From: a virus
Taxonomy: Duplodnaviria; Heunggongvirae; Uroviricota; Caudoviricetes
Virus record (IMG/VR): IMGVR_UViG_3300024999_000035
Coordinates: 128,001 to 178,304 of that record
Strand: one strand, 5' to 3'
Length of the DNA: 50,304 nt
Under the pieces are notes generated by a model that saw nothing but the letters and a program-made list of their open reading frames with translations, made no database searches and was not told the origin of the DNA. Within the stretch, counting starts at the first letter, position 1. Every line of letters starts with the position of its first letter. Positions 1-41,843 of the stretch are shown one piece after another. A program made the translations under genes and the position numbers.

Positions 1-36
1 GATACAGAGAATAATTAAACTGTTATTTATGAATTG

Positions 37-1305
37 TTATGCAGAATATTTATATAGATACCATAAGTCATGATTTACTACTGCTTTACCTTGTCTGTCT
101 GTTTTGACTGATTTTCTTTCCTGCTTTTCACTGATAAAATTATTCGGCACAGGTTCACGGTCTTTAACTTCTATGCGTTGAATGGTGACAGTTTTATCAG
201 TTAATTTTACTACTTGAAAAGCTCTAATTAATATATCGCTTCCTACTTGATAAGCTCCTACAATGTCACCAATTTTAAAAGGATTTTCTGCTTTTATTTC
301 TTTTTCATCCTTCCAATCTTCTGGTATTTTTACTTCCTTAATTTCTGCATATGGGCAAGAAGCGTCATGTCCGGTTAGTGGGTGTTCTATGAACGTGGCT
401 GTTATGGTCTTAGGGTTAACTCGGATAACCTTTGCCCAACAATTGTAACGATAATTTTGGAACAAATAACCTGGTTTGATGTCTGATTTTGTATAAAGTT
501 TTCTGCCATCTTCTTCGAGTTTATTTTTAGTTTCTTCCATGCAATTCTGAAAATACCCCAACTTGTCAATTTGATACTCTAATTTGTCCATCATTTCATC
601 CAAATAACCTTGAATCTGTTCTGTTGTTTTTGCTTCATAAAAAGAAGATACTGCCTCATTGTTATTCTTTTTATGAATAATATCATTGTAATACGTTGCG
701 TTCTTTTCCAATTTTTTGATATGCTTCAAACATTCTTCAATACGGTTATTTAAGTAGATAGGATTTTTTAATTGAGTAGCATCAGCAGTTTGTCTTGCGG
801 TTTCCGCTTTTTCAGCAAAGTATTCTGACTTTTTATACTCTTCAAATCCTTTGTGGTATCTGTCATAAATCCTTTGTCTACGATTACCAAACGCTTGACT
901 TCCTGCATGTCCGGAAATAATTGGTTGAGTGAAAAAGGAATTATCTCCATGGTGAGACTCTAGTTCAGATTGCAGAGCTTTACCTCTGTTATTTGCATTT
1001 ACAGCATATTGGTCATAACGCTCTGCTCTATACTCTGCTTTTTCTTGTTTGCGTTCAAGTTGTTCGGCAAAGGTTAAGCGTTCACCAGCTTTCTCTTCCT
1101 CTGTAAATCCTAGTTTAATGGCAGTCTGAATTGCTCTATATTGGTTATGGATTCCGCGAGATACCCAAGCATTTGCTGATTTGCTAAAAAGGTATGAGCT
1201 TTTGATTTCCTTTTTAAGTTCATCGGATAATGCAAGATAATCAGATTTTTCAAAGTGTAACTCGATTTTGCCAGTTTCTAGATTCTTAATGTAATTTTTA
1301 CTCAT
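37..1305 (-). CDS. DUF3560-domain protein (mobile-element early/leading-region type)
   Basis: 422 aa ORF with SD AGGAGG; 'RAERY...QPIISGHAGSQAF..RRQRI' matches the DUF3560 pattern from memory. Confidence 0.75.
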   Translation of the reverse strand: MSKNYIKNLETGKIELHFEKSDYLALSDELKKEIKSSYLFSKSANAWVSRGIHNQYRAIQTAIKLGFTEEEKAGERLTFAEQLERKQEKAEYRAERYDQYAVNANNRGKALQSELESHHGDNSFFTQPIISGHAGSQAFGNRRQRIYDRYHKGFEEYKKSEYFAEKAETARQTADATQLKNPIYLNNRIEECLKHIKKLEKNATYYNDIIHKKNNNEAVSSFYEAKTTEQIQGYLDEMMDKLEYQIDKLGYFQNCMEETKNKLEEDGRKLYTKSDIKPGYLFQNYRYNCWAKVIRVNPKTITATFIEHPLTGHDASCPYAEIKEVKIPEDWKDEKEIKAENPFKIGDIVGAYQVGSDILIRAFQVVKLTDKTVTIQRIEVKDREPVPNNFISEKQERKSVKTDRQGKAVVNHDLWYLYKYSA

Positions 1306-1335
1306 GTTATGTACCTCCTAAATTTTAGCATCTTA

Positions 1336-1400
1336 GCAGGACTTGTGACCTGCTTTGTGCATTAATTAGAGCGTTTTGTTATACGCTCTAACCACTCTGC
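1336..1400 (-). ncRNA. Twister self-cleaving ribozyme (circularly permuted, type-P5-like)
   Basis: Minus strand reads GCAGAGUG-G-UUAGAGCGU(AUAACAAA)ACGCUCUAA-U-UAAUGCA-CAAA-GCAGG-UCACAAGU-CCUGC. It has the UAAUGC / GCAGAGUG core, a P4 stem with UCACAAG loop and a CAC:GUG pseudoknot. Confidence 0.85.
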
Positions 1401-1405
1401 AAGGG

Positions 1406-1531
1406 TTATTTCTGTGATTGCAATATAGAAATAGCTAAACGCAATTGTTCAATTTTAACCAAATGTTTAGATTTTTCTCCATTTTCTAATTGTTCCAATT
1501 TTTCTTTTAAAACATAAATTGCATAATCCAT
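1406..1531 (-). CDS. Small hypothetical protein (41 aa, MDYAIYVLKEK...)
   Basis: Read by hand; GGGAGGTG SD; stop codon lies 5 nt before the twister core. Confidence 0.7.
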   Translation of the reverse strand: MDYAIYVLKEKLEQLENGEKSKHLVKIEQLRLAISILQSQK

Positions 1532-1559
1532 AATTAACACCTCCCTTAAAAGTTTGGTT

Positions 1560-1835
1560 TTATTTGTTAATCAAATAGCAATGCTCAACTATCCATTTTC
1601 CTTCTTCTGCATGTATATAATGATCAAGTCTTACTCCGTTGTCTGCTCCATCAAGGCAATCTCCAAAAAGTGAATTACCTATTTTTGAACCATCAAAATA
1701 TTTTGCATTACTAGATACCTTATAACTTCTTTCTAACTCGGAAAAAGGTTTTGTGAAGCTATTTTCAGTGAAAACTATTACGGCTTCTTTCCAGTCCTTA
1801 GAATCCTTTAATTGTCTAAATGTTAATTTATCCAT
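1560..1835 (-). CDS. Hypothetical phage protein (91 aa)
   Basis: ORF track; AAGGAG SD; in operon orientation. Confidence 0.8.
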   Translation of the reverse strand: MDKLTFRQLKDSKDWKEAVIVFTENSFTKPFSELERSYKVSSNAKYFDGSKIGNSLFGDCLDGADNGVRLDHYIHAEEGKWIVEHCYLINK

Positions 1836-1844
1836 TCTAATCCA

Positions 1845-1935
1845 CTCTCCTTAAATTTTAATAGTCTCGAATCAAGGCGAAGTCCTGTTATTGTTATGTC
1901 ACTTCGCCCTATTTCCATACAATCAAAATTAGATT
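1845..1935 (-). ncRNA. Intergenic long hairpin with AUAACAAUAACA loop
   Basis: GGCGAAGU...ACUUCGCC stem with an outer imperfect stem running into the downstream SD. Confidence 0.7.
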
Positions 1936-2421
1936 TTATTCACTTATCAATTCAATAAAACAACCTTTAAAGAAATTACCTTGCCTTATATCATAGAATG
2001 AACTAAAAGGAATTTGAAGCTCTCCAATACCTTTTACCTGTTCCAATATTTTATCAAAATCAATATAACCTTGAGCAATTCCATACATTCCATATTTTAA
2101 CCTTTGATGACCGTATCTATCATTTTCAAGGTCAAAATAATTGTCTTCATTGTTATGGTATTCGTCCCATGTTGCACTTAAATTCTCGTTTTTGTCACTA
2201 AATGCATTTCCGGCAATAAAAGCAAGTTTGTTCTTTAGGTCTAAATCAGTTTCACAGATAAATGCTTTTCCATTGATAGCAATTGCAAAATCATTCATTA
2301 ATTGATGCTCCCAGTCTTTACACTTTTTATCTTGGAATTTTTCAGTGTTGAAAGTAATTTTATACATGTTGATACACGCTCCTTCAAATATTCTAGGCCA
2401 ATTGTTATAGATATTTTCCAC
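1936..2421 (-). CDS. Hypothetical protein (161 aa)
   Basis: ORF track; TGGTATAAT extended -10 upstream (~2455-2463); exact start uncertain. Confidence 0.7.
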   Translation of the reverse strand: MENIYNNWPRIFEGACINMYKITFNTEKFQDKKCKDWEHQLMNDFAIAINGKAFICETDLDLKNKLAFIAGNAFSDKNENLSATWDEYHNNEDNYFDLENDRYGHQRLKYGMYGIAQGYIDFDKILEQVKGIGELQIPFSSFYDIRQGNFFKGCFIELISE

Positions 2422-2517
2422 AATTGCCTTTTCTACTCCGTAATTGATATATTCATTATACCACTATTTTACGAAGTACAAAAGAGAATTAAGGCTAATT
2501 CTCTAAATATTTATTTC

Positions 2518-2658
2518 TTAGTTTAGATAATTTCTGATGCTCTGATATTGCGCCATAAATATTTCAGCATCTTCCTTAGTTTGTGGTACTCCAAATAGTT
2601 TAAAGTTTGCTTGTAAAAATCCGTCTGCATGTAGCTTTTGAATAAATTCCAGTGCCAT
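2518..2658 (-). CDS. Small hypothetical protein (46 aa, MALEFIQKLH...)
   Basis: Read by hand; AAAGGAGGT SD. Confidence 0.7.
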   Translation of the reverse strand: MALEFIQKLHADGFLQANFKLFGVPQTKEDAEIFMAQYQSIRNYLN

Positions 2659-2666
2659 TATTTTTA

Positions 2667-2745
2667 CCTCCTTTAGTTTATATTCCCTCGACAACGTTTC
2701 AACCTGTTTTGTTATGGCTGAAACGCTCTGAGAACATACACACTA
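2667..2745 (-). ncRNA. Intergenic long hairpin with AUAACAAAACA loop
   Basis: GCGUUUCAGCC/GGUUGAAACGU stem; 3' arm has GUCGAG then the SD; begins at the upstream stop codon. Confidence 0.7.
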
Positions 2746-2898
2746 AGATTCTAGCATTTCTTTCAAATTGTCTAATAATTTCTTTTCTTCTGCTCCTGCT
2801 TTATCTAATGGGTTTAATTGTCTGTTTGCCCAATTTACCAACTTCAAAAGTATTTCTTTTTCTTGCTCAGTAACATAAATAGCTTTATATGTTGCCAT
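2743..2898 (-). CDS. Small hypothetical protein (51 aa, MATYKAIYVTEQEKE...)
   Basis: Read by hand; GAAAGGAG SD. Confidence 0.7.
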   Translation of the reverse strand: MATYKAIYVTEQEKEILLKLVNWANRQLNPLDKAGAEEKKLLDNLKEMLES

Positions 2899-2939
2899 TA
2901 TTTTGCTCCTTTCTTTCAGTTTATGTGCTCTATATGTAT

Positions 2940-3494
2940 TTAACTTTTACCTGCAAACTCACCATATAATTCTTTTCTCATTTTCTCAGCATATTTTCCT
3001 GCCTCTTCTAGTTGATCTTTCGGGAATCTTTTTAATGTGGTATTCACTCCCTCAATTTGAAGTTGAACAGACCAAGTGTTACCATTCCAACTAACATTTC
3101 TATATCCTGATTTATTATTTATGTTCTTACTCTTTTTATTCTTGGTATTTTCGCTATTTGTTGTTACTCTTAAATTTGATCTTCTATTATCTAATGTATT
3201 TTCTGCTTCTTTGTGATCGACATATTCATCTTCCTTTGCATTCATAATCCATCTATGAAGATAATGAATTTTATATTTAACTTTTCCATCAAGAGAACCC
3301 AAATATTCACACCAACAAACATAATATGCCCATCCTGCCCACTTAATATGCCAAGGTTGATTATGTTTTATAAGTCTTTTTAGTATATCCTCATCTACTA
3401 AAATAGTGAACTTTTCCTTCTTTTTATTTACTATGTAAAATTGACATTCTCCATCTATTATTTTATATTCGTTGAATGGTTTAAATCGTGCCAT
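2940..3494 (-). CDS. HNH endonuclease with C-terminal AP2 domain (free-standing homing endonuclease)
   Basis: YLHRWIM..VDH....LDNRRSNLR HNH motif plus N.SGYRNVSW..W.VQ AP2 motif. Confidence 0.9.
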   Translation of the reverse strand: MARFKPFNEYKIIDGECQFYIVNKKKEKFTILVDEDILKRLIKHNQPWHIKWAGWAYYVCWCEYLGSLDGKVKYKIHYLHRWIMNAKEDEYVDHKEAENTLDNRRSNLRVTTNSENTKNKKSKNINNKSGYRNVSWNGNTWSVQLQIEGVNTTLKRFPKDQLEEAGKYAEKMRKELYGEFAGKS

Positions 3495-3677
3495 ATTATT
3501 TAAATTCCTTTCTATTTTTATTTACTTTATTTAGTTTTCTTCTTCCTACCCTCCTTAAATTAATATAGAATTTGTACTCTATGCCATTATAGCACTTCAT
3601 ACTATAAAAACCAAATAAATTTATTTTGGCATTTAGTATACGAATATAACTAAATGCCATTCCCGTTTAATTCCAAC

Positions 3678-3757
3678 TCCTTTTAAATTTGACTCGACAC
3701 AAAATAGCGAATCTGTTATAAGTTCCGCTACCTTATGACCAACAAACTTTAAGGATT
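3678..3757 (-). ncRNA. Intergenic long hairpin with UAUAACAG loop
   Basis: CCUUAAAGUUUGUUGG...UAGCGGA/UUCGCUA...GUGUCGAGUCAAAUUUAAAAGGAG; outer arms nearly identical to the element at 5398-5486. Confidence 0.7.
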
Positions 3758-3946
3758 TAATATGCTTTTTACTTCCATCATATGAATAGTATTCTCTAAT
3801 TCGTGTTCGGCTCCTGTCCAATGGTCAATATTACCTTCAGGAAAATTAAAGCCGTTTTCCCATGTAATATCACCATTTTTCATATCAATAGATTTTCGAT
3901 ACCAGGTTTTACGATTTTCTAAACAAACCAATAAATCATTTTTCAT
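3749..3946 (-). CDS. Hypothetical protein (65 aa)
   Basis: ORF track; AAGGAGTG SD. Confidence 0.7.
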   Translation of the reverse strand: MKNDLLVCLENRKTWYRKSIDMKNGDITWENGFNFPEGNIDHWTGAEHELENTIHMMEVKSILNP

Positions 3947-3954
3947 TTAATTCA

Positions 3955-4040
3955 CTCCTTAATTTTAATAGACTCAAACCGAAACATCAAATCGTTATTG
4001 TTATTTGATGTTTCAGGTTTCAACCTACTTTTAAGGATTA
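3955..4040 (-). ncRNA. Intergenic long hairpin with AUAACAAUAAC at the apex
   Basis: 12-bp GAAACAUCAAAU/AUUUGAUGUUUC stem; 5' CCUUAA pairs with the UUAAGG SD region. Confidence 0.7.
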
Positions 4041-5390
4041 AGCAACATTAACATTGTTTACAATATTTAGAATTGCTTGAGCGTCTTCTTGATTTTCTTC
4101 TGCATCGTCCAACTCTTCTGCGGTCACTGTTATAGCAGGTTCAAGGTTTTCAGGCTGTAAAGGTTGCTCCCATTGCTCTTCAATGATTTCCTTTTGTTCA
4201 ACTTCAGGCTCAACCTCTTCAACCTGTTCAAAAGAATTTAGTTTGCTCAACTCTGAATTAATAGCATTCAATCGCATTTCCACACGTTTTAGGTCAATAA
4301 CCTTATCCTGCAAGCCTTCCTTATAATCCTTAGAAGGAGCCTGAAAGAATTTATAAGCCCATGCTGAAAACTCTTCAACGTCAACATTATTTCTTAATGC
4401 AGAATGCGCCGAATACATCAACATAACCGTATTAGTCTTATTCAACCATGTATACCGATAAGTTGAATAATTCTTAACCCTTTTACTCCCTTCTTTTTCA
4501 TCTTCTTTCTTTTTGTTGCTAATCCAAATTTCTGTTGCTTGACTGAGGTAATTAGAGACATTTATCATATCGTCTTCAATTTCTTCCGGCAGTCCCAATT
4601 CTCTAAAGCTATAAATTGACTTGTCAATATTGTCTTTTGATAGCTCAATTGGGCCATTGTTATGTAATAGCGTGATGACTTGAGATAAAATCTCGTCTCC
4701 GGCATTCCCTTTTGTCGCTAGTGGGGTTAGAGCATGTAAAATCCAGTCACTATCCAAAATTGATCTAAAGAATTTACGTGTATCGCTCCCCATAGCTGCT
4801 TTGCGAATCTCAGAAGGTTTTAAACCTTTAGCTCCGCTATTCATTTGAACGAATGCTTTTTCTGCATCTTCCTCAGAACAATTATTCATAGTTGTTATTC
4901 TGAGTTGATAACCTTTAATAATATCCTGCCATAGTTCAGGAAGTTCTGAAAATGTTTTGCCCTGGAGTGTTTCGTTAGCGTTAAATTGTTCGCCTTCAAT
5001 AGTAAACTTAGGAAACATGGTTTTTGATACATCAAGTTTGAACCCATTGTTAATGAAAAGGTAAATTGAAGTTAATCTCTGCTGCCCATCCACTGTTTTA
5101 CGAAATTGGCTTTTATCATCGGCTCTGTAAACTGTTATTTCGGGAATAGGATTTTTTAGAAGAACAGTTTGGATTAAGTTTGAAGCTCTCCAAGTCTCCC
5201 AGACGTATGCTCTTTGAGATTCCATGTACTCTCGAAGAGTTTTAAGTTCCTTACCTTCGGCTTCCTTTTTATCGGCAAGAAAATTTTGCAAATGTTTGCC
5301 GACTGTGTAATATTGCTTTTCAATATGTTCAACTAGAGTTCCAATGTCTCGTTTTTCCGTGGTATAAGTGATTTCTTTTTCTTCAGACAT
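4038..5390 (-). CDS. DUF262 (ParB/Srx-like, GmrS-type) domain protein with acidic C-terminal tail
   Basis: QRAYVW, DGQQRLTSI and FVQMNSG..L motifs; start re-called to ATG 5390 (MSEEK) after GAAGGAG SD. Confidence 0.85.
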   Translation of the reverse strand: MSEEKEITYTTEKRDIGTLVEHIEKQYYTVGKHLQNFLADKKEAEGKELKTLREYMESQRAYVWETWRASNLIQTVLLKNPIPEITVYRADDKSQFRKTVDGQQRLTSIYLFINNGFKLDVSKTMFPKFTIEGEQFNANETLQGKTFSELPELWQDIIKGYQLRITTMNNCSEEDAEKAFVQMNSGAKGLKPSEIRKAAMGSDTRKFFRSILDSDWILHALTPLATKGNAGDEILSQVITLLHNNGPIELSKDNIDKSIYSFRELGLPEEIEDDMINVSNYLSQATEIWISNKKKEDEKEGSKRVKNYSTYRYTWLNKTNTVMLMYSAHSALRNNVDVEEFSAWAYKFFQAPSKDYKEGLQDKVIDLKRVEMRLNAINSELSKLNSFEQVEEVEPEVEQKEIIEEQWEQPLQPENLEPAITVTAEELDDAEENQEDAQAILNIVNNVNVA

Positions 5391-5397
5391 TTTTACC

Positions 5398-5486
5398 ACT
5401 CCTTCTAATTTACTCGACACTAGCAACAAATTGTTATGTCTGTTATTTTTATCTTGTTGCTAATAACGAACAAACTTTAAGGGTTA
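5398..5486 (-). ncRNA. Intergenic long hairpin with two AUAACA copies in the loop
   Basis: UAGCAACAA/UUGUUGCUA stem; CCUUAAAGUUUGUU 5' arm and GUGUCGAGUAAAUUAGAAGGAG 3' arm. Confidence 0.7.
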
Positions 5487-5744
5487 GTTAATTGAGGTAA
5501 TATCCCACGAATAAACCTGAATTCTTTTTCCTTCTGCTGTTACAAGATTGTAAACAATTGCGTCTGATTGATGACTAAAAAATACATTCAGACATTTACC
5601 CTCAACTCGTGTACGCTCACAAGTCCTTAAATTCAGTTTATTGGCCTTGACATATTTTCCAATGTCTGCCTTGTCTTGTTCTGCTCCTTCCATCATTGCT
5701 CTGTCAATTGATGCGTTTTTGCTTGCCATTGATGTAAAACTCAT
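5484..5744 (-). CDS. Hypothetical protein (86 aa)
   Basis: ORF track; AAAGGAGTGG SD directly downstream of the hammerhead. Confidence 0.8.
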   Translation of the reverse strand: MSFTSMASKNASIDRAMMEGAEQDKADIGKYVKANKLNLRTCERTRVEGKCLNVFFSHQSDAIVYNLVTAEGKRIQVYSWDITSIN

Positions 5745-5764
5745 TTAATACCACTCCTTTTCTA

Positions 5765-5839
5765 ATTAACCTGCCATCTTCAGTATGTAGCGGTTAACCT
5801 ACATAGACAAGGGACTTAATGTTATTCCCTTGTTTCGGC
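5765..5839 (-). ncRNA. Hammerhead ribozyme, type II
   Basis: GCC-GAAA-CAAGGGA(AUAACAUUAAG)UCCCUUG-UC-UAUGUAG(GUUAACCG)CUACAUA-CUGAAGA-U-GGC-AGGUUAA. Full core, GUC cleavage triplet, and loop I UUAACC can pair with the 3' GGUUAA. Confidence 0.92.
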
Positions 5840-5962
5840 TTATTCCTCCCATTTATAGGAAATTACTTCTAAATCCTCTTTCTCTAGGTTATAAACTTCT
5901 TCTAGGTCGTTGCACTCAAGAAATTGAGTGGTGCCACCATTTTTAACCTTTACAATATACAT
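5840..5962 (-). CDS. Small acidic hypothetical protein (40 aa, MYIVKVKNGG...)
   Basis: Read by hand; GAAAGGAG SD; stop codon abuts the hammerhead. Confidence 0.7.
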   Translation of the reverse strand: MYIVKVKNGGTTQFLECNDLEEVYNLEKEDLEVISYKWEE

Positions 5963-6005
5963 TGTTTACTCCTTTCCAATCCCAACAAATGTCTTTTTGA
6001 TTGGG

Positions 6006-6428
6006 TTAAGATTTCACTCGATATGCTTTTGACACTAAAGCCTCTAAACACTGTTTAAACACCTTTTTTAGTTGTGACTTAGTCATACCATAGTCAAAGG
6101 GAATTTTAATTCCAAATGAACCATTGCAGGAATTTACCCCATAACCAATGTGAAAACAAGGGATATCAGAATAAGGAGCAAAAACAATGTTATATGTACT
6201 ATCATAGAAACCTTTAGTAATGTGTGGGTAGTTGCTAACGTGTACAATTTCATTACCAACTATTTCTCCATATTGTACACCTATTTGAATAGCAGGGAAT
6301 AATGTTGCATCTAAATTGCTTGCAACGTAATCGCGGAAAGTTAAAACAATTTGATCACGTTTCGCATGGATTTCCTTTTGTGTTTTTACCTTTGCAGTTT
6401 TACGCTCAACAACTTTTAATAATGACAT
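6006..6428 (-). CDS. Hypothetical protein
   Basis: ORF track 6006..6464; start re-called to ATG 6428 after GAAAGAGGT SD. Confidence 0.75.
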   Translation of the reverse strand: MSLLKVVERKTAKVKTQKEIHAKRDQIVLTFRDYVASNLDATLFPAIQIGVQYGEIVGNEIVHVSNYPHITKGFYDSTYNIVFAPYSDIPCFHIGYGVNSCNGSFGIKIPFDYGMTKSQLKKVFKQCLEALVSKAYRVKS

Positions 6429-6448
6429 AATTATTACCTCTTTCATTC

Positions 6449-6636
6449 TTAAATTTTTGCACAAGGTCTAAACTCAATTGTTATAAAAGTTCACACCTTG
6501 CGGAAAATTTAATCCCTTCAGCCTTAAGTATAATCAATTTAACATTAAATTACAACAACCTGCATTTTAATTTTGTTATGCAAGTTTAGTGTAATTGTTA
6601 TGATTAAATTGTAATAATGAATAAACTGAAGGGATT
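6449..6636 (-). ncRNA. Two adjacent long hairpins carrying AUAACAA
   Basis: 6449-6512 (UUAAAUUUU..GCAAGGU / ACCUUGU..AAAAUUUAA) and 6511-6636 (AAUCCCUUCAG/CUGAAGGGAUU closing stem). Confidence 0.65.
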
Positions 6637-6674
6637 TTATAGAATGTTTTTGGTTAATTCTCTCTTTTTGCTTC

Positions 6675-7035
6675 AGGGATATGCTTTTGTTAATGCCTAC
6701 AATTTAATTTTTAGTTAAGAATGTCTTTTAACTTGCAAAGATAATTTTTTAAGCTGTACAAATCAGAAAATTGTATTTTCTTTTCTGGAGCATATTTCGA
6801 AATTTTCATAGAAGTGTAGGCTGATATTTCGAAATCACAGAAACAAATTTGATCGAATTGGTTATAATTTTCTTCATTCCTAATTATTTCATCGTTAGTA
6901 TTAAAAACCTTTAATTGAGGAAAATTATTCACAATTTCCTCGAAATGATTTTTAACGATATAATCAGAAGAAATTAAAGCTATCATAATTTTATCATACT
7001 CCTTTTTGAGTAGGCACTAACAGGAGCATATCCCT
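6675..7035. repeat. 26-bp inverted repeat enclosing gene 6711-6986
   Basis: AGGGATATGCTTTTGTTAATGCCTAC (6675-6700) vs GTAGGCACTAACAGGAGCATATCCCT (7010-7035); 23/26 complementary. Confidence 0.9.
6711..6986 (-). CDS. Hypothetical protein (91 aa)
   Basis: ORF track; AAAGGAG SD; lies inside an IR loop. Confidence 0.7.
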   Translation of the reverse strand: MIALISSDYIVKNHFEEIVNNFPQLKVFNTNDEIIRNEENYNQFDQICFCDFEISAYTSMKISKYAPEKKIQFSDLYSLKNYLCKLKDILN

Positions 7036-7041
7036 AGAGAT

Positions 7042-7220
7042 TTTTATCTTTTCCTCTATCCCTTCTAAAATATTCCTATTTGTTTCGTTATCTTGTACTT
7101 TCATTTCTTCTTGGCTGCTTTCTGCATCATTCGCAAAATTAAGCTTTTGAATGAAATATACTAACACAGAGGACTTCTCTACGTTCGGAATATTTTAGGA
7201 AAGGATAAGGGAAGATAAAA
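7042..7220. repeat. ~35-bp imperfect inverted repeat enclosing ~110 nt
   Basis: TTTTATCTTTTCCTCTATCCCTTCTAAAATATTCC (7042-7076) vs GGAATATTTTAGGAAAGGATAAGGGAAGATAAAA (7187-7220). Confidence 0.85.
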
Positions 7221-7230
7221 GAGAGTTTTT

Positions 7231-7511
7231 AAGGCTTTTCAATCTAGCTTAGAACATAGCATGTTATTGTTATTTAAAAATTCTTTTGATATTCTGCTCT
7301 CCATTTTCCGTCAAAAACTTCGTAAGAATCTTTTAAAAGATATCCGGTTTTTGATAACCATTCCGATCTTGATAATGCCATAATTTCCTTATTCATTTCT
7401 TCTTGACTGTCATATTCGTAAATTTGAATCTCAATAACTTGTTTCGACATTTTCAACAACTCCTTAAATATTAAGTATGTTGCTATGCTCTAAGCTAGAC
7501 TAAAAAGTCTT
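7231..7511. repeat. 30-bp inverted repeat enclosing gene 7274-7450
   Basis: AAGGCTTTTCAATCTAGCTTAGAACATAGC (7231-7260) vs 7482-7511; 4 differences, 3 of which are G-U pairs in the minus-strand RNA. Confidence 0.9.
7274..7450 (-). CDS. Small hypothetical protein (58 aa)
   Basis: Start re-called to ATG 7450 after AAGGAG SD; stop is followed by ATAACAATAAC. Confidence 0.75.
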   Translation of the reverse strand: MSKQVIEIQIYEYDSQEEMNKEIMALSRSEWLSKTGYLLKDSYEVFDGKWRAEYQKNF

Positions 7512-7931
7512 TTATCCCTTACAATTATACCTACATCCTGTCTTAATTTCCACTCTCTTTTTCGAGGAACAAACAAATTATTTTTGACTTTAAATTGATA
7601 AACTGTATGTAGATCCCCATTGGCCTCCCATTGGGCCAGACTTGATTGTTATGGAATATCCAGCTTTTTCGATTCGGAGAAGCAAAGCAAAGAATGATGC
7701 TTGATATTTTGAAGAGTAGTATCGAGCTTTGCCTTTTAGAGATTTTAAGGGATTTGTTATAGTGGAATAGGATAATAGGTCTTTTAGGATTTGATACTGC
7801 CATGAACCCTTTGCAAGTTTTAAAAATGAATCTTTTTGAGTTTGTGACATTTTTATTTCCCACTTTCTTAATTTTATTTTTTATTAAGAGAGCAGAAATT
7901 AAGACAAGAATTAAGTTTTTGTAAGAGATAA
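7512..7931. repeat. ~47-bp imperfect inverted repeat enclosing gene 7590-7850
   Basis: 7512-7559 vs 7886-7931; mismatches in the paired segments are G-U wobbles on the minus strand, around a central internal loop. Confidence 0.85.
7590..7850 (-). CDS. Hypothetical basic protein (86 aa), first gene of the leftward operon
   Basis: ORF track; 'LKGKARYYSSKYQASF..L' looks conserved; inside an IR loop. Confidence 0.75.
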   Translation of the reverse strand: MSQTQKDSFLKLAKGSWQYQILKDLLSYSTITNPLKSLKGKARYYSSKYQASFFALLLRIEKAGYSITIKSGPMGGQWGSTYSLSI

Positions 7932-7933
7932 TT

Positions 7934-8085
7934 TGCTGTCTAGCATACAGACTGATGAGCTGCCTTTAGCTGAGTTAAGCTAGATCACGCATATTAAGTT
8001 GAGAAAGAACGTCCTTACAAGTCGGACAAGACTTGTGCTACTGGCTGTAAAACCACTTTGTAGCTGGTGTACTCGCTACCCTCCT
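7934..8085 (-). ncRNA. Candidate structured 5' leader RNA
   Basis: GC-richer than its flanks; hairpins ACAAGUC/GACUUGU (loop UUGUCC, can pair with downstream GGAC), UAGC/GCUA and GUCU/AGAC; follows a consensus promoter. Confidence 0.5.
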
Positions 8086-8117
8086 TTGTTTTATTTATGT
8101 ATTGTTTAACTGTCTTT

Positions 8118-8146
8118 ATTTTAATGGTTTGCAAGGGATATGTCAA
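8118..8146 (-). promoter_or_regulatory. SigA-type promoter for the leftward operon
   Basis: TTGACA-N17-TAAAAT. Confidence 0.8.
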
Positions 8147-8481
8147 CAATTATTTTTGCATTATTAGACGTTTTGTAGTCCTATTTTATTGTAGTGGATA
8201 TAGACACAATTCAAATGATTTTATTGATCTTGTGGTCTTATTTACCACATTTCGCTTCTGAGACGTTTAAAATGTATGCTAGGTAAGAATATAAAGGCCA
8301 GTATGTTTAAATCGCTTAGAGTGGCCTTTTTGTGGCTGTGATTTTGGTGTGATTTTGGTGTGATAGGGTTAAAAGTTGTGGAATTGATTTTTTGTGAGTG
8401 ATCCCGGCAAAACCTAAAGCATATAAAAATGGATTTTTAATGGGTTGGAGAGAAAAGAAAAAGAGCTATTTTATTCAGCTC

Positions 8482-9075
8482 TTACTCATAAAACATTTTG
8501 GAATTTTTAAACTCATTGACTTTGTTTTTAATAAATTGGTCTATATCGAATTTTACCATTTCGGTATTAATATATTGATTTGAGAAAGTACAAACTGTGT
8601 AATAATTGATATAACTTGTCGAGGGTATTTTTAATTGTTCGTTAATGTCTATAATTAGTTCAACGGTTTCCTTCCTGCGGTTTACTTTAGCAAGGAGGAC
8701 ATATTTTTTATATTCAACGTTACTATATGATGTCCTGTACCTTTCCCCTGCTTCTGATAGTTCATAAACCTTTTTAATGTTTTCTGGTAATAATGCAAGA
8801 AAATTTTCTTGACTGAGCATGTCTCGTTCCTTCTCTGCATTGTCTAATGTTGCAATGTAGCGGTTAAAACTGCTTTTGTTTTTAGTCTGGTATATTGTAT
8901 CATCTCCCAAAAATTCTTCAACTTCGATATTGAGTTTTTCGGCTAATTGCTTCAGATTGCATTTGTAACCATATTCACGGCTAGAGTTTGGATAAGTCAC
9001 ATAATATTTACTAGCCTTTTTTACAATTGATCCTGCAAACTTGGATTGCAATTGCTCAAGTTTTAACTCCTTCAT
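8482..9075 (-). CDS. Hypothetical protein
   Basis: Start re-called to ATG 9075 (MKELK) after AAAGGAG; TGCTATAAT upstream. Confidence 0.75.
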   Translation of the reverse strand: MKELKLEQLQSKFAGSIVKKASKYYVTYPNSSREYGYKCNLKQLAEKLNIEVEEFLGDDTIYQTKNKSSFNRYIATLDNAEKERDMLSQENFLALLPENIKKVYELSEAGERYRTSYSNVEYKKYVLLAKVNRRKETVELIIDINEQLKIPSTSYINYYTVCTFSNQYINTEMVKFDIDQFIKNKVNEFKNSKMFYE

Positions 9076-9320
9076 TGCGCCAACTCCTTTAATATATCTG
9101 ATATTAACATTATAGCACAGAAACAATAAAAATAGTCATGTTGAATAAAATTATTTTTACATTTGATAAGGTTTAAAGGGTTATATTTTGCCAGTGGTGT
9201 ATGTATATAGGGTATAGAGTATAAACCACTTAGAGTGCCATTTATGACGTTCTAAGGGTTATTTGATGCCTATAAGATATAGGTTTCGAATACAAAAAGA
9301 AAAAACCCTATAAATAGGGT

Positions 9321-9476
9321 TTAATATCTTTGATTTTCATAAGCATTTTCTACCATGCACTCTATTTCAAACTCTTCTTGGCCTTGTGCTTCTTGATCTT
9401 TTAAGCAATCTTTATAATCTTTACATTTATTACACTTATCAGAATATGTTTTAGGATTCCCAAAATCATCACACAT
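9321..9476 (-). CDS. Small Cys-rich protein (51 aa)
   Basis: Read by hand; AAAGGAG SD; followed by hairpin AAACCCTAT/ATAGGGTTT and a T-run. Confidence 0.65.
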   Translation of the reverse strand: MCDDFGNPKTYSDKCNKCKDYKDCLKDQEAQGQEEFEIECMVENAYENQRY

Positions 9477-9734
9477 ATTAAATTACTCCTTTTTATTTTG
9501 TTTGATTATAATATATCAAAATTTATGAATATTGTCTAGTGGTTTGTAAAAATTATTTTATTCCCCATTAAATTGGGCATTTGGATTGCTTTGGAATATT
9601 AATAACTGGCCTAAACTATGTTCTGCTACAACACAATAAAAATAAGTAAAATGTTGCTTGCTGCACGCACAAAAACACATATGTATTTGTAGGAAGGACA
9701 TTGGAAATAAAGAAAAAGGACTTATTACTAAGTC

Positions 9735-9911
9735 CTAAAATAACATACTATAATTATTAGCTTGTTCTATATCATCAAACCAAATTTTATTATGACATTG
9801 TGGGCATATTTTTGTATTGTCCCAATCAACGCCTTTTTGTATTTTGTTTCCGCAAGCTTCACATTCCCAGTGGTCTTCTAGTTCTATGTATATTACATCT
9901 TTATCCTGCAT
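9735..9911 (-). CDS. Small zinc-ribbon protein (58 aa)
   Basis: Read by hand; AAGGAGGTG SD; CEAC...CPQC. Confidence 0.75.
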   Translation of the reverse strand: MQDKDVIYIELEDHWECEACGNKIQKGVDWDNTKICPQCHNKIWFDDIEQANNYSMLF

Positions 9912-9989
9912 TTTTTCACCTCCTTCAATAATTAATTTATATTATCATTAATGATGGTATATGTCTATACAAAAAGAAAAGAAGTATTT

Positions 9990-10742
9990 CTACTTCTTAA
10001 TCTCTTTTACTAATACTCTAAAGTGCCAACACTGTATATTATAACCTCCTGCTGATATTGTCTCAACTTTTGCCTTTCCTAGTTCGCCTATGATATAACC
10101 GTTAATTTCTCCATTTAGGCCAATGTATAAGTTTTGAGCATCTAAAATCTTTCCAGTGATCTTTTTTACTCTTGTTACTAAAAATTGCCTTTTTATGTTT
10201 TTATCTTTTTCAATTTCCCTTTCTAATTCTTTTTCCCAACTATTTCTATAAAGTTGGTATAGTTTTAGTGTGAGAGAATGAAAAGAAGAGTTTAGTTTTT
10301 TAGCTTGCGTTTCGTGATCTATACCTAGTTCTTTTTGCTTTTCTTTATACTCCTTTCCATAGTGGTATATATGGGTTTCTTCCTGCCATAATCTGAATTC
10401 TTTTTCCTTTTTGCTTAACTCCTTGTGGTATTCTTTTAGGTTTTGATATTCCACTTTAAACCACTCAATAACTTTTATTTTCCATTCTTCTAAAAATTCT
10501 TCAATGACTGGAATTCGCTCAACTTCGTTTTTCTTCTGCTCTTTCTCCTGTTGTTTGGAAAGATTTTCTAATTGGATCTCTAAGTCTTTGAGTTTAGACT
10601 GACTTGTTTTTAAGTCATCTTTTGCCCATTTAAGATCCCATTCGTCGGTAATAGTTTCAATTTTCTTCTCTTGCTTAGTGATTAAGTTTTTTCTTTTCTG
10701 GATGTCTAATTGTTTTTTATCGATCCGCTCTAATAGTGTCAT
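9990..10742 (-). CDS. Coiled-coil phage protein (250 aa)
   Basis: AAGGAGG SD; C-terminal GEINGYIIG...VETISAGGYNIQCWHFRVLVK resembles a widespread phage hypothetical family. Confidence 0.8.
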   Translation of the reverse strand: MTLLERIDKKQLDIQKRKNLITKQEKKIETITDEWDLKWAKDDLKTSQSKLKDLEIQLENLSKQQEKEQKKNEVERIPVIEEFLEEWKIKVIEWFKVEYQNLKEYHKELSKKEKEFRLWQEETHIYHYGKEYKEKQKELGIDHETQAKKLNSSFHSLTLKLYQLYRNSWEKELEREIEKDKNIKRQFLVTRVKKITGKILDAQNLYIGLNGEINGYIIGELGKAKVETISAGGYNIQCWHFRVLVKEIKK

Positions 10743-10959
10743 ATGTATCCTCCTTAAAATTGATCATGATTAATAATACCATACAAATTAATAAAGTACA
10801 ATATAATTATTTCTATATTCAATAATAATTTTAAAAATTGCGTTCGTTCCATTTTATCATGAAAATTATAGATTTGTATATAGGTTTTAGAAAATTATTT
10901 TATAGTTCTGCTACCGATAAAACAAGAGATTTAAGGCATTGAGACAAAGAAAAAGAGAC

Positions 10960-11376
10960 TTATTCAGCCTCTTTAGCACCAACTAACAAATATTCGCCAT
11001 CACTACCAAATTTATAAGGATTTAGATACCCTTCAATTTTTACAACTGGCCTATTTTTTGTAGCAATAAACATTAGAGATACTTTATCAACATCATTATT
11101 TTCAATACCATAAATCTCCATTGTGGATACTCCATGCTCCGGTAACTGATCCCTAAAATTATAACTTTGTCCTGATTCTGGAATATCTCCATATCTCCAA
11201 CCTTTGACATATTCAGGAAAATCATAACCTTTATAACCACACTCAAAAAAGAAATTTAGAGTAAAATCAAAAAAGTAAATATCTGGTGCAAGATTGCTGT
11301 ATATAATGGTGCTTATGTCAGTTCCTTGGAGGGATTTTCCTTTGTTGTATGCATTAATAAAAGATTGGTTTGTCAT
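10960..11376 (-). CDS. Hypothetical protein, possible ADP-ribosyltransferase-like fold
   Basis: AAGGAGG SD; GWRYG...EHGVS...GSDGE pattern; function is inference. Confidence 0.6.
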   Translation of the reverse strand: MTNQSFINAYNKGKSLQGTDISTIIYSNLAPDIYFFDFTLNFFFECGYKGYDFPEYVKGWRYGDIPESGQSYNFRDQLPEHGVSTMEIYGIENNDVDKVSLMFIATKNRPVVKIEGYLNPYKFGSDGEYLLVGAKEAE

Positions 11377-11429
11377 TGGGTGTGACCTCCTTTATTGATA
11401 TTGAATTAGTAGATAATAAGATAATAAAA

Positions 11430-11458
11430 AAACCTATGATTTATTTTATCATAGGTTT
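11430..11458 (-). terminator. Intrinsic terminator-like hairpin
   Basis: AAACCTATGAT/ATCATAGGTTT followed by a T-run on the minus strand. Confidence 0.6.
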
Positions 11459-11485
11459 ATGGATAGTGCAATATTATTTTTATAT

Positions 11486-11803
11486 TTAATCCTGAAGCAA
11501 TCCAAGGTCAATTATTTTATCATCAGCAATATTTTCCGGTGTATTGTTGCTATCCACTGAGCATTCAAACCATTTGTCTTTTACATTTGATGCAGTAAGG
11601 ATTATAAAGGCTTCGCCATTTTCATTTTGTAGGATTGTATGATAAGCTGAATCTAATGGACTGTAGGTAGATTGTGTGGCTAGTGCTATCATTGTGTAGG
11701 AGTGATCGGAGTTTGGTTGTATTGAGGGTGAAGCTGAAGTTGTTAGGATTGAAGATGTTAGGAGAGTGAGGGAAAGGGTTAAGATAGATATTAATTTTTT
11801 CAT
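11486..11803 (-). CDS. Secreted/exported small protein
   Basis: Signal peptide MKKLISILTLSLTLLTSSILTTSAS. Confidence 0.75.
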   Translation of the reverse strand: MKKLISILTLSLTLLTSSILTTSASPSIQPNSDHSYTMIALATQSTYSPLDSAYHTILQNENGEAFIILTASNVKDKWFECSVDSNNTPENIADDKIIDLGLLQD

Positions 11804-11826
11804 TTTGTGGCCTTCTTTCTTTTATT

Positions 11827-12081
11827 TTATCTAAATACCAATTCTAGGTTTAAGTCTTTACCGTGACCCAATTTGATAGCATCGTGTAAGAGATTATACA
11901 CGGTTAATTCGTTGAAGGTATCAGCAGAAGTATTTTCAAATGCTACATGTTTAAATGCTTTTCTTCCTTCTCCAGTATAATTTTCCTCTAAATAGTTGAA
12001 AGCTTCTTGAATAGTTCTTTTACCGTTTAGGACTTTAGAAAGGATTTGATTGACTCCATTAGGCCAGTATGCTTTTTGCAT
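11827..12081 (-). CDS. Hypothetical protein (84 aa)
   Basis: AAGGAGG SD; TTTACA-N18-TATAAT promoter at 12124-12153. Confidence 0.75.
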   Translation of the reverse strand: MQKAYWPNGVNQILSKVLNGKRTIQEAFNYLEENYTGEGRKAFKHVAFENTSADTFNELTVYNLLHDAIKLGHGKDLNLELVFR

Positions 12082-12439
12082 TTATGTATTTCCTCCTTTT
12101 GATATTTATTTAGTAATATTGATATTATAGCATTGATTTATATTTATTGTAAAGTATTTATTTTAGAATTTATAAACATATCAAAGGAATAAGAAGAAAG
12201 AAAAGATTATTAGAAGTATAAATTCAGTCATTGAGCGAATAGCGAAATGCTGACATACGGTCTCGGATCACTGTATTTATTGAGAATTATAATATTAGGA
12301 TTTAAATAAATCTAATCAAAATTAATAAAGTTGATAAATGCTATTTTGAGCTTGTCTCAAAATTGAAAAGACGCTGTCAGCTAATGTTAGTTTTGATTTG
12401 ATTATTTGGATTAGTCAATTATACTATATTAAGGGTTCG

Positions 12440-12491
12440 TAATTCGTCACCAATATCTATATTAATATATATAGTTATTCATGACGAATTA
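12440..12491. repeat. 10-bp inverted repeat around an AT-rich core (ori-like)
   Basis: TAATTCGTCA-N32-TGACGAATTA immediately downstream of the helicase-like gene. Confidence 0.6.
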
Positions 12492-12494
12492 GAA

Positions 12495-14234
12495 TTATTT
12501 CTTAATTATATGATTAACTCGATTAATCTTTATTAATTCTATATTTAACTCATTAACTATTTTTTGGACAATATCATCTTTCCATAGTCTACTAAAATTA
12601 GTTGGTTTATATTCTATTTGTTCTAATAAATCATTAACTGGATATTGCTTATTAACATCTAACAATTTAAGTAATTCAATAAATTTATTACAATAACTAT
12701 TTTCTTTTCTCTCCTTGCTATCATATTTCTTTACTTTTTCCTCATGCAATTTAAAATTAACAACATTAATATCTTTTAGTTGTTGAATAATAACATTTAC
12801 AATCTCAATATCACCATTAATTAAATAAACGTCTGCTTTATCTTCTATATGCCCTGTTCCCCTATTAATTCTTTTAATCCCTTGATATATACTAGATATA
12901 ATATCAGTTTTCCTTAAACTCTCCAATGTTTCATTATATTTAAATCCCATGTTTTTATTGATTTTCTGGAATTTAAATTCCTCTTCGGTTGGCACTTCTC
13001 CTGTATAAAGCATATACATGAATATGTAATAGGGTGCTGGCATTACTGGCGTGTGAATAATAAAGCATTTATTAAAATCTTTCCAATCGTTCTTTCCTCT
13101 CATATTTTGGAAATTACTATATTTGATATTCTCTAGATGTATAAGTTTCTCACTGTAATTATTATTTATGTGTGCAATATCCTCTTCTAGTCCTAACACT
13201 AAAATATTATCCTTTTCAGCGCATTCCTTGATAATTAATGCCACAATATCTTTATAAAAATTATCATCATTATGTTTTGCTGTTTTGGTGCTATTAGTGT
13301 TAGATATATGGATAGTCCAATTATTATGCGGAAAAATGCGCTCTGCTTCATTAAGTTTGAATTGATTTCCTAGTTTGTATAGTTCGTGGAATTTTGCTGA
13401 TGCATCAAGAAGTATATTATTGTCAAGGAAGAAATACTTTAAATCATCATCAAAAGTATATAATGTTTTATTACTGACTAATACTTTAGGATTATTAAAG
13501 TATTTCTTTAGTATTTCAAGTTTATCTAATAGTTTAAGTTTATTTGTAAATATATTCTGACTATAACCTAAATGGAATTCATAATTATTTGTAAAAGGTG
13601 TTTCATTAACCATTAATTTTAACATATCAATTGCTTTTTCTATCTTTGTGCTAGTAAATTCAAAATATCTTAATGTTTTGTCGTGACATTGATCCTTCTT
13701 TTCAACTAATTCAGATATGATTCTATTGAATGCTACTTCTAAATCGATATACATATTTTCTTCAGCATCAATATATTTTAAACCTCTTAGGGTTCGTCTT
13801 AATATGTCTATGTCTGTATCTCCCAGAGAATCCATTTCAACCATATTTAATTCTTCATCAATTATTAAATTTGTACGCTCTGCTATGTAATATTTGCGTT
13901 TATGATAAGGGTCTTTACAGAGTTTTTTATACATTGCATGAGTAATAATGAGCACTTCATACTTTTTAAGGTCTTTCTCATATCTTTCCTTATTTTCTGA
14001 ATTCTCATCTTTAGCCATGTTTGGTTTAAATTTATTAAGTTCACTTGCAATTAGTTTTCCCTCATCAATAAATTTTGTTACAATTAAAGTTTTGATTGGT
14101 TTATTGTTTAATGAGTTCGTGGTGGCTGATAGTTCCTTTAGTGTTTCAATAATTGTATGAGTTTTTCCGATTGCTGCCTCACACATAAAGACATTAAATA
14201 ATTCTTCAATTTTAGTAAATATACTATTATTCAT
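12495..14234 (-). CDS. SF2 helicase-like / Rep-associated P-loop protein
   Basis: Walker A EAAIGKT, IITH, Walker B LIIDEE, LDASA, RGKND, YQGIKRINR; start re-called to ATG 14234 after AAGGAG, coupled to the upstream stop. Confidence 0.75.
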   Translation of the reverse strand: MNNSIFTKIEELFNVFMCEAAIGKTHTIIETLKELSATTNSLNNKPIKTLIVTKFIDEGKLIASELNKFKPNMAKDENSENKERYEKDLKKYEVLIITHAMYKKLCKDPYHKRKYYIAERTNLIIDEELNMVEMDSLGDTDIDILRRTLRGLKYIDAEENMYIDLEVAFNRIISELVEKKDQCHDKTLRYFEFTSTKIEKAIDMLKLMVNETPFTNNYEFHLGYSQNIFTNKLKLLDKLEILKKYFNNPKVLVSNKTLYTFDDDLKYFFLDNNILLDASAKFHELYKLGNQFKLNEAERIFPHNNWTIHISNTNSTKTAKHNDDNFYKDIVALIIKECAEKDNILVLGLEEDIAHINNNYSEKLIHLENIKYSNFQNMRGKNDWKDFNKCFIIHTPVMPAPYYIFMYMLYTGEVPTEEEFKFQKINKNMGFKYNETLESLRKTDIISSIYQGIKRINRGTGHIEDKADVYLINGDIEIVNVIIQQLKDINVVNFKLHEEKVKKYDSKERKENSYCNKFIELLKLLDVNKQYPVNDLLEQIEYKPTNFSRLWKDDIVQKIVNELNIELIKINRVNHIIKK

Positions 14235-15999: not shown

Positions 16000-16176
16000 A
16001 TTGGTTCACCCCTTTCTATAGATTTGTATAATTAATTCTATATTATCAAATATTATAGCATATGTCAAACAATTATAATTATTTTAATATTGTAGGTTGT
16101 TATAAGTAAATTGTTATGGTGTTATAATGATTCTGTTATATGCAAAATAGACAAAGAAAAGGTAAGATTTTACATC

Positions 16177-41426: not shown

Positions 41427-41843
41427 CTAACCAGAAGCAAAGCAAGATATAGACTTATTTATTTGGACATCTGAAATTAGATGTTAAATCTTATTTCAAA
41501 AACAAAATTGCAAGATTGTGTAGATTTACTTTACATAACTTATACATTTGAAACATGAATTATAAACAAGCAGGTTTTACTTAATAGTAAAAGAAGAATC
41601 GCTAATCATTTCGCAAAACACAAAATCATCATTCGCAAATTCGATATGTCTCTAATTTCATTATAAAGCAAATACGATAATCGCTTTCGCTAATCACTGT
41701 ATTCTTTAGAAGAAATTCTAAAACAAGAGAACAACTGATTTAAATATAAAATTGGTAATATCTCATTAGAGGTATTGATAAATATAATGGACAATTAATA
41801 AAAATCAATTAGTAAATAGTCTTATTTTGCTTGCTCTGGTTAG
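41427..41843 (+). ncRNA. Candidate ~420-nt ncRNA with terminal stem and repeat-rich loop
   Basis: CTAACCAGAAGCAAAGCAAGATATAGACTTATTTA pairs with TAAATAGTCTTATTTTGCTTGCTCTGGTTAG; internal hairpins; TCGCTAA/TCGCAAA-like repeats at 41599-41699. Confidence 0.7.

Follow-up and report, generated by a model that had tools for sequence, protein, structure and literature searches.

The stretch of DNA considered here (the window; 50,304 nucleotides (nt)) is the terminal 50 kb, positions 128,001 to 178,304, of the 178,304-bp Caudoviricetes record IMGVR_UViG_3300024999_000035, which has a G+C content of 28% and is rated as complete by CheckV. A block of small genes with strong AAGGAG-type ribosome-binding sites occupies the minus strand at window positions 1-9100 and a further 14 kb upstream of the window. 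The operon of interest in this early block is headed by a consensus-like promoter (Table 1), and clear TGnTATAAT promoters are present in other intergenic regions. The gene junctions of the operon harbor five long hairpins, referred to as E1 to E5, which are the subject of this report, together with a twister-P5 ribozyme, a hammerhead-like element and, upstream of the window, a pistol ribozyme. Window positions 1300-7000 gave no match to cultured phages with blastn, and the helicase protein is less than 31% identical to those of all cultured phages; therefore, the phage has no annotated relatives.

A reading of these letters without database searches (the sequence-only reading) had proposed a family of five hairpins, each extending from an upstream stop codon to the next Shine-Dalgarno (SD) sequence (AAGGAG). 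All five were recovered on the minus strand, which is both the coding strand and the RNA sense, and begin at or within a few bases of the stop codon. E3 is the exception in placement: a hairpin and the insertion of an HNH endonuclease gene come next, and because of this insertion no start codon is found at the normal spacing. The proposed pairing of a 5′ CCUU with the AAGG of the SD sequence is present in E3, E4, and E5, the 14-mer CCUUAAAGUUUGUU is identical in E3 and E5 around different inner stems, and the motifs GUGUCGAGU, UUCGAGAC, and UUUGAGUC occur as quoted. By contrast, the count and the consensus required revision. The genome contains seven copies, two of them upstream of the window at genome positions 126429-126330 and 126110-126014 (model matches 126427-126357 and 126106-126035), and the 3′ arm, which is conserved as suggested, is better described as U-Y-G-A-R than as (G/U)UCGAG, and its G and A are invariant in all 63 unique relatives. 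All seven copies fold as long rods, with z values between -4.4 and -6.4, a stability that was not reached by any of 200 shuffles.

Table 1. Coordinates of the hairpins and of other features discussed in the text. Positions are those of the window unless stated otherwise; R2 is the refined covariance model.
Feature	Coordinates	Strand	Model core, score or match	Loop, conserved site and remarks
E1, rod hairpin	1836..1938	-	model core 1924-1860; z -4.42; R2 52.2 bits	loop AUAACAAUAACA; 3′ arm UUCGAG (invariant G 1868, A 1867)
E2, divergent member	2659..2745	-	z -5.63; R2 only 16.9 bits, E 0.086 in 9.5 kb	loop AUAACAAAACA; 3′ arm GUCGAGG (G 2689, A 2688); C opposite the invariant G, hence paired; one C bulged
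E3, rod hairpin	3665..3751	-	model core 3748-3687; z -5.07; R2 57.2 bits	loop UUAUAACAG; 3′ arm GUCGAGU (G 3695, A 3694); stop codon within CCU-UAA-AG
E4, rod hairpin	3947..4040	-	model core 4029-3967; z -6.44; R2 58.8 bits	loop AAUAACAAUAACG; core UUGAA/UUGAG with G·G mismatch (G 3975, A 3974)
E5, rod hairpin	5391..5486	-	model core 5476-5407; z -4.46; R2 44.6 bits	two AUAACA in loop; 3′ arm GUCGAGU (G 5415, A 5414); C opposite the invariant G
E7, intergenic rod hairpin	6449..6512	-	R2 16.1 bits, E 0.12	AUAACA in loop; no UYGAR core
Twister-P5 ribozyme	1337..1401	-	Rfam RF02684, 53.5 bits against a gathering threshold of 37.6	stop-to-SD slot upstream of the DUF3560 gene (1305-37)
Hammerhead-like type II element	5765..5839	-	read from the sequence	same kind of slot
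HNH endonuclease gene, 184 aa	3494-2940	-	HNH_3, weak match, E 0.0016	
Consensus-like promoter	8118..8146	-	TTGACA-17-TAAAAT, 11/12 positions matching	heads the element-bearing operon
Pistol ribozyme	genome 122433-122359		Rfam RF02679, 59.5 bits	upstream of the window, same operon
SPO1 hairpins, at least five	FJ230960 7114-7211, 11777-11851, 12194-12272, 12381-12526, 12698-12793			host-takeover intergenic regions

The extent of the family was determined with covariance models, the first of which (R1) was built from 13 hand-picked copies and the second (R2) refined on the 20 matches of R1. Over the whole phage genome, R1 retrieves six copies, all on the minus strand at 126-133.5 kb. The search set comprised 758 kb of related DNA, namely IMG/VR contigs and 69 metagenome loci found via the neighboring DUF3560 protein (loci are denoted by L and genomes by G numbers); relatives were also sought with two other early proteins (140 and 143 aa), which yielded no related loci. 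R2 gave 76 matches in this set (E<=0.01), 63 of them unique and all 76 on the gene-sense strand. In the 63-member alignment, 88.1% of cells are paired, against 63.3% in shuffles, and the covariation score is 0.709 against 0.244, a value reached by none of 500 shuffles; sliding the partner columns as a control lowers the score to 0.08-0.14. Two-sided changes are found in 19 of the 22 modelled pairs. The alignment was fitted to the model, which biases it toward the structure, yet the covariation is not an artefact of this fit because the upper stems differ completely among the copies. The orthologues of E1 in L002, L030, L032, L033, L041, and L050 carry compensatory changes, and the orthologue of the divergent E2 (L002 11850-11938) keeps the structure via one-sided changes.

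The fold can be assigned to the RNA strand, since the modelled pairs include 71 G-U against nine A-C combinations and the mean minimum free energy is -20.6 kcal/mol for the sense and -13.2 kcal/mol for the antisense strand. These values bear on the proposal that the hairpins are DNA-level modules, whose arms would serve as recombination joints for the shuffling of early genes or as targets of a mobile endonuclease. Such a module would explain the exact 14-nt 5′ arm and the similar 3′ arms that surround unrelated inner stems in E3 and E5, the occurrence of the same element types beside different genes in different relatives, and the HNH gene inserted beside E3. The excess of G-U over A-C pairs and the sense-strand advantage of 7 kcal/mol, however, indicate selection on an RNA fold, and all matches lie on the sense strand, which makes a purely DNA-level role highly improbable; gene shuffling via shared arms may be a by-product. 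The HNH gene, together with its own upstream hairpin, lies directly after E3 (window 2940-3660, minus strand), an arrangement suggestive of a mobile gene that inserted at the boundary of an element.

E1 to E5 match no Rfam family, either at the gathering threshold or at E<=10 over window positions 1200-6800, and R2 found no match in seven loci of Firmicutes genomes in which DUF3560 relatives are encoded. The hairpins constitute a real RNA motif family that is absent from Rfam 15, apparently undescribed, and restricted to a clade of uncultured phages. A Firmicute is the probable host, for which there are three grounds, each of them weak: the long AAGGAG sites and TGnTATAAT promoters of the phage, the prevalence of pistol ribozymes in Firmicutes (PMC4604425), and the DUF3560 relatives within bacterial genomes, which are from Firmicutes in every case. 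Among the phage homologues of DUF3560, that of the complete relative G003 (L005 10001-10771) reaches a stop after 257 codons, the others having approximately 400-420 codons.

Family members are 59-87 nt long and form a rod of at least 22 bp (the 22 modelled pairs plus extensions), which consists of a lower stem of eight pairs, a conserved site, approximately 14 further pairs, and a loop region of 12-40 nt. At the conserved site, the 3′ arm reads U-Y-G-A-R, in which G110 and A111 are found in 63/63 members and U108 in 60/63; A116 is likewise conserved (62/63). The opposite 5′ arm reads UU(G/C/U)RA, i.e., U7-U8 followed by G, C or U and then by R-A. The pair U8-A111 is U-A in 62 of the 63 members and shows no covariation, and the pair 11-109 alternates between G-C and A-U. 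Opposite the invariant G, 47 members have G, 11 have C, and five have U; the G·G mismatch is therefore usual and not required. This base could pair with the G in 16/63 members, and a fully paired palindrome, UCGA/UCGA, is present in 7/63. The tetranucleotide of the 3′ arm is UCGA in 44/63 and UUGA in 15/63, and the rod is least regular in the few pairs directly above the conserved site. Three further structural descriptions were tried and rejected. A core of tandem sheared G·A pairs, similar to that of a k-turn, forms fewer pairs than the G·G register and misfits the UGGA/UCGA members; a ruler of fixed length between loop and core, of the kind known from yeast Rnt1p, disagrees with the spacing between AUAACA and the invariant G, which varies from 16 to 23 nt; and a pseudoknot between the AUAACA loop and a UGUU of the 5′ arm is available in a subset only and competes with the covarying lower stem.

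With respect to the genes, the stop codon of the upstream reading frame lies a median of 10 nt before the model 5′ end (59/63) or inside the stem, and the model 3′ end is followed by the SD sequence at a median of 6.5 nt and by the start codon at a median of 21.5 nt (54/63). The SD core is predicted to be paired (P>0.5) in 34 of 57 members, with a mean P of 0.62; in E4 it is masked by an outer UCCUUAA/UUAAGGA pairing (predicted P 0.99) and in E5 by CCUU/AAGG (0.77). Stop codons so close to or within the stem, the frequent pairing of the SD core, and the CCUU/AAGG foot of E3 to E5 are all expected of a hairpin that is never cut and merely masks the SD sequence, so that a terminating ribosome melts the foot and thereby enables translation of the downstream gene. 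As a complete explanation, such translational coupling is unlikely, since the SD core is not mainly paired (P<=0.5) in 23/57 members and is clearly free (P<0.2) in five, and since it leaves the invariance of UYGAR, the non-covarying U-A pair, and AUAACA unexplained and fails to account for the ribozymes that replace the hairpin in its slot (see below). SD masking with coupling is plausible as an added, second role of the same rod. The alternative that the hairpins are plain terminators also found no favor, none of the five being flagged by a terminator scan and their 3′ flanks being A-rich. Regarding promoters, E1, E3, and E5 have no minus-strand promoter-like site, and the weak matches inside E4 (3990-3962) and E2 (2702-2675) agree with the consensus at 9 of 12 positions and have no extended -10 element; such matches number 35 in the region, against a shuffle mean of 43.3.

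The hairpins had been described as sharing their slot with two recognisable ribozymes. This description is correct for the twister-P5 ribozyme, which Rfam confirms, and could not be verified for the second one, a putative hammerhead whose core looks plausible by eye: Rfam returned no hammerhead at 5765-5839 at E<=10, either in a 5.6-kb search or in a 116-base search. This hammerhead-like element comprises, in order, GAAAC, stem III with an AUAACA loop, GUC, stem I, CUGAAGA, an extra U, and stem II, and its loop I sequence UUAACC could pair with a downstream GGUUAA to form a 6-bp pseudoknot, a layout of loop I and tail that has been described for hammerheads (Perreault et al. 2011, PMC3088659). 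The exchange of elements is most evident upstream of the DUF3560 gene, where the slot contains the twister-P5 ribozyme in the present phage (G000) and at least 12 relatives, a pistol ribozyme in L007, a member of the UYGAR hairpin family in L058, and a near-perfect hairpin of approximately 28 bp in nine loci (L034, L035, L043, L048, L050, L051, L059, L080, and L006). The latter hairpin (UUUAAUUAUUCUCUAGGUCGUGAUAU...) lacks AUAACA, lies within the approximately 100 nt that precede the DUF3560 start codon, and looks like an ideal RNase III substrate. To our knowledge, cutting is the sole known activity of these ribozymes, and the hairpins with which they are exchanged are therefore likely cleavage modules; this exchange is the strongest argument, although an indirect one, for a role of the hairpins in cleavage. 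Clustered phage ribozymes have been suggested to divide long transcripts into mRNAs of gene length (PMC3088659), and the role of clustered twister, pistol, and hammerhead ribozymes in phages is still called elusive (PMC6765202).

Occupation of a slot that holds confirmed ribozyme classes, both in this operon and in relatives, also raises the question of whether the hairpins themselves represent a riboswitch or a self-cleaving ribozyme of a new class, as the sequence-only reading had offered as one of two options. The family has approximately ten conserved nucleotides, and earlier new ribozyme classes were discovered in such neighborhoods (PMC4604425). The architecture nevertheless makes self-cleavage very unlikely, because the helix is almost continuous, with a core that is fully Watson-Crick paired in 7/63 members, the partner of the invariant G may be G, C or U, and no junction, bulge or pseudoknot is conserved; moreover, a rigid rod separates the loop from the stem site by approximately 14 bp, which prevents the two from docking in cis. 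No Rfam ribozyme model touches E1 to E5 at E<=10, twister-P5 being the only one returned by the scan. A riboswitch is disfavored to the same degree, as neither an aptamer-like pocket nor an alternative expression platform is present.

Sequence conservation extends to the apical loop, which contains AUAACA in 52 of the 63 unique relatives, often twice, and in all copies of this genome. No sense-strand hexamer of the early block (window 1-8146, minus strand; genome 114-136 kb) is more enriched than ATAACA, for which 56 occurrences were observed against 7.7 expected, with nine on the antisense strand; in the loci of relatives it occurs 1539 times in the sense and 343 times in the antisense orientation. 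AUAACA is located in rod loops, in the optional stem loop of the twister-P5 ribozyme, in stem III of the hammerhead-like element, and in other hairpins; orthologous twisters keep it while the stem covaries. Related loci without the UYGAR family (L007, L009, L010, and L094) are also rich in AUAACA, and the tag is therefore a separate and wider feature than the rods. Four copies of ATAACA, spaced by 8-14 nt, are further found at 16097-16139 (minus strand), outside any hairpin loop and between a terminator-like hairpin and a TTGACA-N17-TAATAT promoter, where they may act at the DNA level or in a leader RNA. The complement of the tag, UGUUAU, is absent from the tandem-motif RNA at 41427-41843. Two larger structured intergenic elements of the minus strand carry AUAACA in their loops. 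The first (L001 13337-13460; genome 125460-125337) combines a GGGC...GCCC hairpin with nested CCUCUAAGCC/GGCGGUUUAGAGG helices and gave only chance, miRNA-like matches to Rfam, belonging to no family. Its companion (L001 9563-9692; genome 121692-121563) includes a twister-like AAGCCC...GGGU and gave nothing in the Rfam scan of L001 at E<=1, the one scan covering it.

The strong enrichment of ATAACA on the sense strand, its presence in the loops of the twister and the hammerhead-like element, and the preservation of two sequence-specific modules while the stems covary are properties that a protein-binding site would have. In principle, the hairpins could thus be uncut sites at which a dedicated RNA-binding protein of the phage or host contacts both AUAACA and UYGAR, acting as an operator-type regulator, a stabilizer or an antitermination factor. 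We regard this explanation as improbable. The tag and the UYGAR rods are separable, the tag being abundant where the family is absent; one copy per junction and the exchange with ribozymes fit processing better than regulation; and the early proteins that were scanned gave no informative Pfam match and no RNA-binding domain, the genome also being devoid of a double-stranded RNA-binding domain (dsRBD). A combined scheme deserves somewhat more credence, as a tentative possibility: AUAACA might mark every junction module of these operons, self-cutting ribozymes and protein-cut hairpins being exchangeable components of a tagged system of mRNA segmentation, and a phage or host factor might read the tag, the rods being cut at UYG^AR. 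It is conceivable, with the same reserve, that the rods are substrates of a dedicated, sequence-specific processing of double-stranded RNA (dsRNA) and not plain RNase III sites.

On balance, the hairpins are probably processing sites at which a host enzyme of the RNase III family would cut the early mRNA. We infer cleavage, the identity of the enzyme, and the cut position, and this reading, the other option of the sequence-only reading, proved the best-supported one owing to helix length, placement, slot exchange, the UCGA site, and the analogy with phage SPO1, all of which are circumstantial. The rods provide what a canonical RNase III substrate needs, at least approximately two turns of mostly continuous dsRNA on the transcribed strand. 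RNase III is near-universal among bacteria. Neither the RNase III catalytic domain nor a dsRBD (PF14622, PF00636, and PF00035) was matched in the 178-kb phage genome; hence, a host enzyme, either the canonical RNase III or Mini-III, is the default candidate for recognition of the rod, the phage encoding neither. The enzyme would read the helix together with the near-invariant duplex site 5′-UU(G/C/U)RA/5′-UYGAR and cut in or near it. Mini-III of Gram-positive bacteria prefers a WSSW tetranucleotide spanning the cut, as in ACC^U, and leaves 2-nt 3′ overhangs (PMC5141509, PMC4357697). Based on this precedent and on the two-fold symmetry of the site, the cut is predicted on the 3′ arm between the two invariant bases, UYG^AR. 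Alternatively, it may lie approximately 10 bp further down, at the base of the rod and beside the SD sequence, if the rule for the distal box of Escherichia coli applies, in which UU/AG is located 10-11 bp from the cut (PMC5141509). Cutting would divide the polycistronic message into single-gene mRNAs, the upstream product terminating in the stable upper hairpin and the downstream product retaining a short leader, approximately 29 nt before the start codon in the case of UYG^AR. It would also free the SD sequence from a foot pairing of the CCUU/AAGG type. AUAACA is a separate tag, which is also present on the ribozymes and on other hairpins of these operons.

Phages of Firmicutes offer the closest analogy. 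In SP82, the targets of Bacillus subtilis RNase III have internal loops and receive a single cut on the downstream arm (PMC1935012), and RNase III sites in the early mRNA of SP82 and SPO1 are credited to Panganiban and Whiteley 1983 and Mitra and Bechhofer 1994 (via PMC4838370, PMC1935012). As in the present operon, these hairpins have irregular stems and separate the small early genes of a large phage of Firmicutes, and the downstream arm, the one cut in SP82, is also the more conserved arm in the UYGAR family. In SPO1 itself (FJ230960; L014), we found unannotated repeats of the form GGUUGCUAG-[variable stem]-AUGGAGCC (Table 1), which often start at a UAG stop codon and are presumably the mapped SP82-type RNase III sites. 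They resemble the UYGAR hairpins in beginning at the stop codon and in having a conserved lower and a variable upper stem, and differ from them in that AUGGAGCC takes the place of the UYGAR conserved site and the AUAACA loop tag is lacking.

Rods of this kind, with at least 22 bp and a local irregularity, are cut by RNase III in the early mRNA of phage T7, whose signals R0.3, R0.5, R1, R1.1, and R1.3 have asymmetric internal loops. Similarities to the present family include one hairpin per early junction, protection of the upstream product by a 3′ hairpin, and an irregular stem that favors a cut on one strand; the asymmetry of the internal loops and the absence of an invariant loop motif set T7 apart. 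T4-type promoter-early stem-loop (PeSL) cassettes include an early promoter and have been proposed to be recombination joints. They are likewise repeated stem-loops between small early genes that could mediate modular shuffling, whereas the UYGAR elements have no clear promoter and show covariation at the RNA level. The twister-P5, pistol, and type II hammerhead ribozymes share with the hairpins their operons, the stop-to-SD slot, interchangeability before the same orthologue, and AUAACA in a peripheral loop; the hairpins differ in having no ribozyme core, junction or pseudoknot. Regarding the enzymes, UU/AG at the UYGAR site equals the distal-box consensus of E. coli (PMC5141509), while the proximal box, CWUW/WAWG, is not evident, and the host enzyme is probably a Gram-positive one. 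Mini-III occurs in Gram-positive bacteria, and its homodimer would suit the two-fold symmetric UYGAR site; in both cases, conservation is highest in a duplex site of four bases, and UCGA (44/63) is a WSSW word. With FpMiniIII, UGCA is cut best, and ACGU and UCGU are at least equal to the original ACCU substrate.

Several points weigh against assignment of the hairpins to RNase III-family processing. Most members (47/63) have a G·G mismatch at the second position of the tetranucleotide, and 15/63 have UUGA, which departs from WSSW. We know of no natural Mini-III substrate other than pre-23S rRNA, nor of any phage mRNA substrate of this enzyme. Canonical RNase III usually needs little sequence, and the invariant GA and the loop motif therefore exceed the requirement of a plain RNase III site. 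AUAACA is not explained by this model and is also found before a promoter and in loci devoid of the family. Finally, R2 found no match in positions 1-14000 of SPO1 (E<=1), which makes the likeness to SP82 and SPO1 an analogy and not a homology.

Three aspects give the family its value: the slot exchange, a duplex site of unusual specificity, and the as yet unexplained tag. Depending on the relative, the same orthologous gene follows a twister, a pistol, a near-perfect dsRNA hairpin or a UYGAR hairpin, which renders the question of the role of these ribozymes testable. Should an RNase III-family enzyme prove to cut the hairpins, ribozymes and nuclease sites would be alternative solutions to one task, the division of the early transcript into single-gene mRNAs whose ends are defined. 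For a candidate substrate of a bacterial dsRNA nuclease, an invariant duplex site of four bases is rare, and it would be useful for studies on the specificity of RNase III and Mini-III from Firmicutes, for the latter of which the UYGAR family is possibly the first natural mRNA substrate. Furthermore, the AUAACA tag could lead to the protein partners of phage ribozymes, as reviewers in the field have asked for.

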